Below, in pieces: positions 48,870 through 52,759 of a stretch of DNA of 59,830 nucleotides (position 1 is the first letter of the stretch; each line of letters opens with the position of its first letter). The position numbers and the translations under genes were made by a program. Source of the stretch: an uncultured Gammaproteobacteria bacterium (lineage in GTDB: Bacteria; Pseudomonadota; Gammaproteobacteria; Xanthomonadales; SZUA-38); NCBI GenBank assembly GCA_964559945.1, contig CAZLJY010000004.1, forward strand, positions 1-59,830. Reading direction: 5' to 3'. The notes beneath the pieces were generated by a model. That model searched no databases and was not told the DNA's origin. It saw only the letters and a program-made list of their open reading frames with translations.

Positions 48870-50054
48870 ATGATCCTAAAAAGCCTCACTACCATCGCAG
48901 CACTCATTACTTTGCTATCAACCCAGCAAGTCGCGGCCCAGGGCGCCCCGGCCGACGCCCTGGATGCAAGCTGGATTCGGGTTTGCGCAGGCGCTCAACC
49001 CAACAGCACGTTTTTCGATCGCTGTCAGGAAATTATCAATGCAGGCCCAGGCTCTGCCGGCAGGCGCTCCGCCGCCGCAGTCGGGAATAATTTAGGGGTA
49101 GTGGGGGCGCAAGGTCGGCGCGCCACCCGAGATGACAGCACAGCGGACTCTGCGAGAGTGCGCCAGGACTTTGGTGCCTGGTCCATACTGACCAACGCCA
49201 GGCTAGGGAATCGGGATAGAGATCCCAGTGATTTTGAAAATGGCTATTCCGAAGACGTTACAGCATTCGATATCGGCCTGGATTACCGACTCAACAATCA
49301 GTGGGTGATTGGCGGCCTGGCCACTTTTGAAAACGCTGACGCAGATTTCGATGGGCAGGCAGGCGAACTGGATTCTGACAGCCAGTCCCTCACAGCAATG
49401 ATCAACGGCGCGTTTGCCAACGGTTGGTGGGCCCAGGGCTACGTGGGTTATCGAAATCTTGAGTACGATGGGATCCGAAATATTGCTTATCAGCTGGTCG
49501 TTAATGCTGGCACTCCCCAGGAAGCTGAATTCGACGTCGCAGATCTTGCCAGCAGCTCCACCGATGGGGACCAACTCATCGCCGGCATTGGCTTCGGGAA
49601 AACCTTGGCTAGGGGTGGGTGGTCATTCACGCCTCAGATCGCCCTCGACTTCGCAGACACCGATATCGATGCTTATGCGGAGCAAAGCGGCAACGGACTG
49701 GCCCAGAGATTTTCCGGTCAGTCCGTCAAATCCTTGAACCTATCGGCAGGAATGCAGATTTCGCGAGCGATCAGCACCGGTTTTGGCGTCCTGCAGCCCT
49801 ATGGTCGGTTGGCATGGCAGCATGAGTTTGACAATGATGCCCGAGAATTAACATCGAGCTTTGTTGGCGACAGCTCCGGTGCAACGATCTCCTACGCCAC
49901 CCAATCACCGGACCGAAATTTCGGCGACCTGTCCTTTGGACTGGCGATGGTTTTCGCCAATGGCAAGAGCGCTTACATTGGCTATCGTCATTTGCTTGAG
50001 CATCGGTTCTTAGACGATGGTCAATTGCAGATCGGCGGTCGATTCGAGTTCTAA
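48870..50054 (+). CDS. Autotransporter-type beta-barrel outer-membrane protein with a very short passenger
   Basis: Signal peptide; IGLDYR, QPYGRLAWQHEF; ends in GGRFEF (BAM-type C-terminal Phe). Confidence 0.85.
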   Translation: MILKSLTTIAALITLLSTQQVAAQGAPADALDASWIRVCAGAQPNSTFFDRCQEIINAGPGSAGRRSAAAVGNNLGVVGAQGRRATRDDSTADSARVRQDFGAWSILTNARLGNRDRDPSDFENGYSEDVTAFDIGLDYRLNNQWVIGGLATFENADADFDGQAGELDSDSQSLTAMINGAFANGWWAQGYVGYRNLEYDGIRNIAYQLVVNAGTPQEAEFDVADLASSSTDGDQLIAGIGFGKTLARGGWSFTPQIALDFADTDIDAYAEQSGNGLAQRFSGQSVKSLNLSAGMQISRAISTGFGVLQPYGRLAWQHEFDNDARELTSSFVGDSSGATISYATQSPDRNFGDLSFGLAMVFANGKSAYIGYRHLLEHRFLDDGQLQIGGRFEF

Positions 50055-50090: not shown

Positions 50091-50121
50091 ATAAAAAAAG
50101 GCCGCGCTGAGCGCGGCCTTT
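50091..50121 (-). terminator. Intrinsic terminator, strongest on the minus strand
   Basis: AAAGGCCGCGC-TGA-GCGCGGCCTTT with a 7-A run on the left, i.e. a U tail on the minus strand. Confidence 0.8.
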
Positions 50122-50163
50122 CGTGAGTCGGGCAGAACCTACCCTCGTGTTTTCACTGAACCA

Positions 50164-50229
50164 TCAAACCGCGATGGCTCCCGGTGCACACGACTGCAGA
50201 CTCCAAACCATTCGATACTCACCAGACAT
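50164..50229 (-). CDS. Putative 21-aa small ORF MSGEYRMVWSLQSCAPGAIAV
   Basis: Preceded by AAGGAGGTGATC-AC-ATG (12-nt complement of the 16S 3' end) and followed by the terminator above. Confidence 0.5.
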   Translation of the reverse strand: MSGEYRMVWSLQSCAPGAIAV

Positions 50230-50496
50230 GTGATCACCTCCTTCAGTTCACTCTTGGGACTTTGATCATGCCCCATTATTCAATCTCAAACCACCCGCAA
50301 GAAGGGCCTTTGACCCCTTGCCCACCACCCACCGAGTTACCCCGCAATAGGCCTGAGACCAGAACCTAATGATGATTTGATCCGATCAAATCGATTCTGC
50401 AATCGGCGACGTCGGCCTAGAATGAACCATAGCGGCGGGTGAACGGACAAAAATTAGACAAATTTCATTCTTAAAATCAATTACCATTTCGTTTTC

Positions 50497-50548: not shown

Positions 50549-52759
<2,211 letters not shown>

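Follow-up and report, generated by a model that had tools for sequence, protein, structure and literature searches.

The closest described relatives of the unit analysed here are small translated RNAs of Alphaproteobacteria. rreB from Bradyrhizobium is a 165-nt mRNA for a peptide of 14 amino acids, and its complementarity to 16S rRNA spans 17 nt, including the G of its GTG start codon (PMC5711450). The RNA is found in the ribosomal pellet and co-sediments with the 30S subunit, a behavior that depends on the 5' extension of its Shine-Dalgarno (SD) sequence; a 14-nt truncation loses most of the ribosome association (PMC5711450). rreB is translated weakly, its extended SD suppresses translation, and rreB-EGFP fusions are translated, while a change of the GUG start codon to UAG lengthens the half-life of the RNA from 10 to 37 min (PMC5711450). 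Growth is unaffected when derivatives of the rreB RNA are overproduced, including a truncation that can still be translated, and the synthetic RreB and RreR peptides are unstructured (PMC5711450). The authors called the function of rreB and rreR elusive (PMC5711450), and a literature search found no later functional work on either RNA. CC2171, a Caulobacter sRNA, was confirmed by Northern blot in Methylorubrum, with no function given (bioRxiv 10.1101/2022.01.24.477521).

A unit of similar design lies on the minus strand of the window, a stretch of 59,830 nucleotides (contig CAZLJY010000004.1) from a marine metagenome-assembled genome (MAG). Like rreB, it has its own terminator and an SD extended to both sides of GGAGG, and with its putative promoter it would form a stand-alone RNA of about 165 nt. 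Both RNAs have a 7-nt spacing, UCU as the second codon, a start region held in a conserved helix, and a tiny sORF, of 14 codons in rreB and 21 in the window. In both, the genomic context is not kept beyond close relatives. The two differ in their pairing with 16S rRNA: the complement of rreB takes in the start codon's G, whereas that of the window unit spans 12 nt plus a G-U pair and its ATG lies beyond an AC. The peptides show no similarity, and the hosts are an alphaproteobacterium and a gammaproteobacterium. Binding to 30S, weak translation and start-dependent decay are known for rreB only; for the window unit, the sequence shows the anatomy and its conservation. rreR, from the Rhodobacter/Roseobacter clade, also combines an extended SD with an sORF (18 codons), whose length is fixed while its peptide varies. 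It is unlike the window unit in its GTG start, which falls inside a complement of 16-17 nt, and in an internal CCUCCU able to pair with the SD.

Two traits that serve as criteria for rre RNAs are altered here: in place of a perfect 16S complement of at least 16 nt there is one of 12 nt, and the complement does not end in the G of a GTG, the start being ATG. Such ATG starts occur in Sphingomonadales, Azospirillum and the gammaproteobacterial relatives. Two further traits, a tiny sORF at 7-nt spacing and a helix reaching from the start to the terminator, are both present. Judged by this layout and by the Rfam alignment given below, the unit is a gammaproteobacterial variant, and a new one, of the known rreB/rreR (CC2171) class.

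Architecture of the Unit

The whole conserved unit occupies 50093..50301 on the minus strand, a 210-nt block that is common to the window and to L124, the contig carrying its nearest relative, and that ends at the U-tail. At the unit, the minus strand of the window reads CUGAAGGAGGUGAUCACAUGUCUGGUGAGU..., and the unit is made up of an upstream block, an extended SD, an sORF, a structured core and a terminator. The extended SD (50243-50232, minus strand; DNA AAGGAGGTGATC, RNA AAGGAGGUGAUC) matches the 16S tail over 12 nt. The sequence TGATCAC lies between GGAGG and ATG, which gives a spacing of 7 nt, and AC separates the ATG (50229-50227, minus strand) from the SD duplex. The sORF, MSGEYRMVWSLQSCAPGAIAV, comprises 21 codons plus TGA (50229-50164, minus strand; TGA at 50166-50164), with UCU as its second codon. 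Directly after codon 2 begins the 5' strand of the closing helix P1, GGUGAGU (50217..50223, minus strand), which RNAfold pairs with the 3' strand ACUCAC (50123..50128, minus strand). Between them lies the variable structured core, a long hairpin (50129..50216, minus strand) with the sORF stop at its apical loop.

The 3' strand of P1 abuts an intrinsic terminator (50121-50093, minus strand) that RNAfold folds into a 12-bp GC hairpin followed by U7. Its hairpin, AAAGGCCGCGC-TCA-GCGCGGCCTTT, covers 50121-50097 and is followed by seven T at 50099-50093; as RNA it reads AAAGGCCGCGC-UCA-GCGCGGCCUUU, with seven U in total. A simple terminator scan raised no flag at 50093-50121 on the minus strand, despite the 12-bp stem and U7 found by RNAfold, a case in which such a scan overlooked a clear hairpin. 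The 12-nt SD, its 7-nt spacing, the 21-codon ORF and the GC hairpin with U7 had all been described in the original prediction, and each was confirmed on the minus strand. The 180-nt stretch of the unit folds at -71 kcal/mol, below all 200 of 200 shuffles (z = -3.56, RNAfold).

Upstream of the SD, the alignment of the window with L124 defines a conserved block (50244..50301, minus strand) in which the promoter and a short 5' leader presumably lie. It extends for about 58 nt ahead of the SD, and the transcript is presumed to start about 15-20 nt upstream of the SD and to be about 165 nt long. A candidate -10 element, CATGAT (CATTAT in L124), lies at -27 to -22 from the SD. Its distance is that of TACACT in G1, a deep-sea group of related units from metagenomes, where TACACT has a -35 partner, TTGCCA, at 17 nt. 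In the window, a sigma-70 scan upstream of the SD found no promoter and the block holds no convincing -35 element; when GTGGTTTG...CATGAT was read by eye as a sigma-54, sigma-32 or ECF-like promoter, no reading was convincing or kept in L124. The leader, GAACUG-AAGGAGG, resembles the family's CAACUGAAAGGAGG, and its GAACUG resembles CAACUGA in the family. An overlapping 45-codon ORF (50276-50139) was rejected: no SD precedes it, and in L124 a change of TAG to CAG removes its stop, so that the frame continues there through the terminator.

Predicted Pairing with the 16S Tail

The free 3' tail of 16S rRNA, GAUCACCUCCUU, is a near-universal target, and 12 nt span nearly the whole of it. AAGGAGGUGAUC pairs with this tail through 12 Watson-Crick pairs and one possible G-U pair upstream, beyond which mismatches follow, with ACA in place of CAG. 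The duplex is predicted at -22 to -23 kcal/mol with the near-universal tail. The ribosome-binding site of the nearby katG gene gives a predicted -9 to -10 kcal/mol, and rreB-like RNAs give predicted duplexes of -26 to -33 kcal/mol. In the predicted fold the SD has a mean unpaired probability of 0.57; that is, it is about half open. By analogy with rreB, 30S binding by the window RNA may be weaker than rreB's, since most ribosome association was already gone in the 14-nt truncation of rreB; the single-stranded seed was missing from that construct as well, so the binding strength of the window RNA cannot be read from its sequence.

The exact SD 12-mer occurs once in the window, where about 0.007 exact matches are expected by arithmetic; with one mismatch allowed, shuffles average 0.23 matches. 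One near-match, AAGGAGGGGATC at 136-147 on the plus strand, is one base off the 12-mer. It lies within a minus-strand ORF (1-1974) for a Chlamydia-PMP-repeat protein and looks like a chance occurrence. A relic of an rRNA operon was rejected as the origin of the unit: the 12-mer is the sole match to the 16S end, and there is no SSU match.

Toward the end of the sORF, many members of the family repeat the 16S tail internally (ACCUCCU, even GGGAUCACCUCC), as seen in G1 (for example L132:435-620), in L077 and in the Rhodobacterales units L006, L013 and L102. In these members the copy might base-pair in cis with the SD, which a ribosome translating across the copy would release. An internal CCUCC or GAUCACCUCC mimic of this kind, present in many members, is absent from the window RNA.

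Genomic Context and Conservation

The unit is convergent with an autotransporter gene (48870-50054, plus strand) and divergent from katG (50597-52759, plus strand); gene coordinates bear out this arrangement, which had been predicted. The next gene 3' of the unit is convergent, so the unit has no downstream cistron. The same terminator probably serves the autotransporter transcript arriving from the other side, for which the hairpin is followed by only three U on the plus strand. A leader peptide or attenuator was rejected on the ground that the terminator adjoins the 3' end of that convergent gene. The nearest named homologues of the autotransporter (78% identical) and of PaaA (92%) are both from Lysobacterales MAGs, and by these proteins the host looks like a Lysobacterales-type gammaproteobacterium. 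KatG homologues are uninformative on the host. The closest are from unnamed Pseudomonadota MAGs, and the next-closest named ones are alphaproteobacterial (Roseobacter group and Hyphomicrobiales, 75-78% identity); judging by these homologues, katG may have been acquired horizontally.

L124, the contig with the 78%-identical autotransporter, has the unit in the corresponding position and orientation, and is the only relative found with the window's own sequence type. The persistence of the SD-ATG-terminator layout had been named as a check of the prediction, and L124 keeps it. The presumed transcribed part is 91% identical between the two, the autotransporter coding sequence 73%, and the 150 nt further upstream 43%, which is roughly chance level. 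Pairing survives three substitutions in the stems (G-U to G-C, or U-G to U-A), the apical part of the core is re-registered, and the terminator stem is identical, its loop alone differing. Three further relatives of the autotransporter (73-74%) lack the unit at the syntenic place.

In L124 a gene other than katG adjoins the unit, and none of three katG relatives (83-84% identical) has the unit upstream. A unit present without katG, and katG relatives without the unit, mark the unit as an independent gene that conservation does not tie to katG. The link to katG and oxidative stress, implied by the suggestion of following the response to H2O2, was therefore rejected, the katG neighborhood of the unit not being conserved. 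Public RNA runs included none that contained the window stretch, and the three metatranscriptomes of the source study held only short katG pieces, 90-95% identical, from other organisms.

A Wider Family

In a permissive Rfam scan, 50253-50098 on the minus strand aligns full-length to RF01867 (CC2171), model positions 1-159, and the SD, start, closing helix and terminator all fall at their places in the model. The match scores 24.4 bits (E = 0.0095 against all 4227 families), yet the gathering score is 75, and because it lies below that threshold the window unit is called a variant rather than a CC2171 member. CC2171 is the best match among 'Gene; sRNA' families and the second-best overall; no match at gathering level occurs anywhere in the window. 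On the same model, a Rickettsiales MAG scores 45 bits and a Gemmatimonadales MAG (L004) 26 bits, and six other divergent units have no CC2171 match at E up to 1.

The motif AAGGAGGTGATCNNNTGTCT, common to the model consensus and the window, was scanned over 185,579 genomes, one per prokaryotic species, and gave at least 120 loci. Among the matches listed, nearly all are from Alphaproteobacteria, with six from Gemmatimonadota and three labelled Gammaproteobacteria. A few ordinary protein genes aside, nearly all listed loci share one layout: a (C)AACAAC-type leader, the extended SD, a start followed by UCU, P1, a variable core, P1' and a terminator. Their sORFs have 14-26 codons, and the median distance from the SD to the terminator end is 163 nt. 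The 14-aa RreB peptide (VS..KRCHLAGIAR) is found among the listed loci. When metagenomes were scanned with the 20-mer of the window itself, AAGGAGGTGATCACATGTCT, 30 loci emerged (L131-L160), which comprise the well-sampled G1 group (24 codons), a 14-codon group and a 16-codon unit, all with a terminator and a helix after UCU. Across both scans the layout recurs in at least about 140 loci. In a Pseudohongiella locus (L017) the 5' module is shared, and no terminator was found.

These marine AAGGAGGTGATCACATGTCT units, together with L085, a Gammaproteobacteria MAG, resemble the window unit in their 12-nt SD, AC spacer, ATG and UCU, in a P1 (RGUGAN/NUCACG) that abuts the terminator, and in ORFs of 14-26 codons. 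They differ from it in their cores and peptides, G1 in addition by an internal ACCUCCU that mimics the anti-SD and L085 by its 16 nt of complementarity. The pattern AUGUCU-RGUGAN ... NUCACG-RAA-terminator is common to the window, L124, L085, two Pseudomonadota MAGs (L035 and L105), L049, L145 and G1. The 17 positions of the SD and NTGTCT were prescribed by the retrieval pattern and so do not count independently towards kinship. The RGUGAN ... NUCACG-RAA-terminator part was not demanded by that pattern. With the SD-start module prescribed by the retrieval patterns, the case for kinship is made by the sequence beyond that module and by the independent Rfam model.

The Gemmatimonadota units (L004, L010, L016, L027, L050 and L091) start with TTG, followed by UCU, behind an extended SD; their frames run to 15-20 codons and their 3' parts are structured. 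The class thus seems, by the features of these units, to exist outside Pseudomonadota, which was unreported in the 2016 paper. In two Azospirillum loci (L071:3847-4100 and L106:1323-1580) the same extended SD, ATG and UCU precede an ORF of 59-60 codons, whose N-terminus (MSHGA.PVVAA.FGLA.LLTAGIA.A.C) resembles a signal peptide or lipoprotein signal; there the extended SD may front a real small secreted protein.

The sequence of P1 differs between clades while its pairing is kept, as read from a curated table of clades; MAFFT misaligned the 3' halves across subfamilies. P1 is GUGAGU/ACUCAC in both the window and L124. At the same position, other clades have GUGAU/AUCAC, GUGAA/UUCAC or GUGAGAU/AUCUCAC, and alphaproteobacterial P1 helices differ (CAUUGUC/GACAAUG, CAUGGUUCAGC/GCUGACCAUG). 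The fifth pair is G-C, U-A or A-U, depending on the group. The G1 consensus fold has the architecture of the window unit, with a P1 that closes a long structured core and abuts the terminator, and it contains three compensatory pairs along with many one-sided changes that keep pairing. An alignment-free test of P1 pairing gave a mean best helix of 5.7 bp for self against 4.6 bp for non-self; the difference goes in the expected direction but is noisy, since automatic detection of the terminator broke down at several loci.

Peptide or RNA

Taken together with what is known of rreB, the evidence makes it probable that the unit encodes an independent small mRNA/sRNA of the rre type, about 165 nt long, whose docking and translation follow a mechanism like that of rreB. 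Of the roles first proposed, an RNA that holds 30S subunits is the one closest to the evidence, and by analogy it would match the 30S co-sedimentation of rreB.

The unit had also been proposed to encode a highly translated micropeptide. As an ordinary micropeptide gene it would make a 21-aa effector, with the strong SD merely driving translation of a structured mRNA. The start, the length of the frame and the TGA are kept in L124, and the position of the stop is conserved family-wide, all of which would suit such a gene, as would the optimal spacing of GGAGG to ATG and a start codon that is better than the GTG of rreB. The substitutions argue the other way. Codons 1-15 are identical in nucleotides between the window and L124, and all three codons that do change are non-synonymous (P16T, A18V and A20P). 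In five clades pooled pN/pS is 0.8-1.3, no better than in out-of-frame controls, and variable sites fall equally on all codon positions, the third showing no excess. Every change in the Bradyrhizobiaceae rreB set is non-synonymous. This pN/pS comparison, which corresponds to the dN/dS check proposed at the outset, gives no purifying selection on the peptide in the five clades. Between clades, the peptides share nothing beyond the MS imposed by the pattern. High translation, too, sits poorly with rreB, whose extended SD lowers it, and both the lack of structure in the synthetic RreB and RreR peptides and the absence of a growth phenotype for the translatable rreB truncation (PMC5711450) speak against an effector. 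An ordinary micropeptide gene is therefore unlikely, and the peptide is probably dispensable and not the effector.

If the peptide matters little, the ORF itself might be incidental and the unit a purely non-coding base-pairing sRNA, with its SD-like end serving as a seed for CCUCC targets or as a protein site. Conservation at the nucleotide level, the covarying helices, the strong fold and the classification of the family as sRNA in Rfam would all agree with this. The reading frame, however, bears marks of use. The start keeps its fixed 7 nt, and in Sphingomonadales (for example L009, L014 and L022) the stop falls at codon 19 in 25 of 29 distinct sequences with variable flanks, usually just after the 5' arm of a hairpin, while its type rotates (12 TAA, 12 TGA and 5 TAG). 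Frames +1 and +2 have no conserved stop and are often open for more than 40 codons, and other clades are alike in this. For rreB, moreover, EGFP fusions are translated and the start codon alters the half-life of the RNA (PMC5711450). An untranslated sRNA is accordingly quite improbable. From these patterns, selection is inferred to maintain the RNA helices, the start and the number of codons translated, with the amino-acid sequence left free. A pN/pS near 1, a fixed stop of rotating type and a covarying P1 suggest that docking and translation of the frame matter, and that the peptide does not.

Chance deserves still less credit. An ORF and an SD might have arisen fortuitously beside a terminator of the autotransporter, which the hairpin could serve, and three autotransporter relatives lack the unit; a given 12-mer is expected by arithmetic about once per few-Mb genome. 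Against this stand the conservation in L124 of the whole 210-nt block, above that of the flanking gene, and the recurrence of the layout in the loci of both scans. The same low probability covers a plus-strand RNA with a mimic of the 16S tail, which had been offered as an anti-SD sRNA. On the plus strand the hairpin precedes the mimic, so that the shared hairpin would stop autotransporter transcripts before 50232 and make such an RNA unlikely; the conserved start, stop, helix and U-tail are all read on the minus strand, and there is no rRNA-like match. Chance and a plus-strand RNA are both very unlikely, and by its conservation the unit is real. A type I toxin-antitoxin-like pair, in which an antisense RNA would repress a small toxic membrane peptide, also figured in the original prediction and would explain why a tiny ORF has a strong SD and lies in a structured mRNA that ends at a terminator of its own, but is hardly credible given a short, mildly hydrophobic peptide (21 aa, GRAVY 0.47) with no hydrophobic run of transmembrane length, related units' peptides that are hydrophilic (for example MSSEQKYKAFERGVIT and MSEDCMCEASGVTR), no evident antisense promoter or partner, and rreB overexpression that had no effect on growth.

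Proposed Mechanism

In the favored reading, that of an rre-type RNA, the largely single-stranded 5' end would dock the 30S subunit through an SD:anti-SD helix of 12-13 bp, far tighter than at an ordinary ribosome-binding site. The AUG would then lie at the canonical 7 nt from GGAGG, and initiation would require P1 to melt. Because P1 starts right after codon 2, an initiating ribosome would have to open both P1 and the long central hairpin. Translation would run for 21 codons and stop at the tip of that hairpin. The working part of the device would be the docking, the slow or weak translation, and the remodelling or decay of the RNA that depends on translation.

Significance

The rre/CC2171 RNAs are conserved in many Alphaproteobacteria and have no assigned function in the literature found. 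The same design is also present in marine Gammaproteobacteria and Gemmatimonadota, with 16S complements that range from 12 to 17 nt. Because such units lie below ORF cut-offs and the Rfam threshold, they are routinely missed in annotation. The comparison moves the question away from what the peptide does and supplies natural variants in affinity.

A broader and more speculative proposal, considered improbable, is that rre/CC2171 is an old RNA that crosses phyla (Alphaproteobacteria, Gammaproteobacteria and Gemmatimonadota), in which the conserved property is the pairing with the 16S tail and the peptide is irrelevant. If this is true, selection would act on docking and on translation over a set number of codons. 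Such an RNA could sense or regulate the pool of free 30S subunits or the state of the 16S 3' end, in maturation, quality control or hibernation, and in its gammaproteobacterial form, with 12 nt, the same device would be tuned to a lower affinity.
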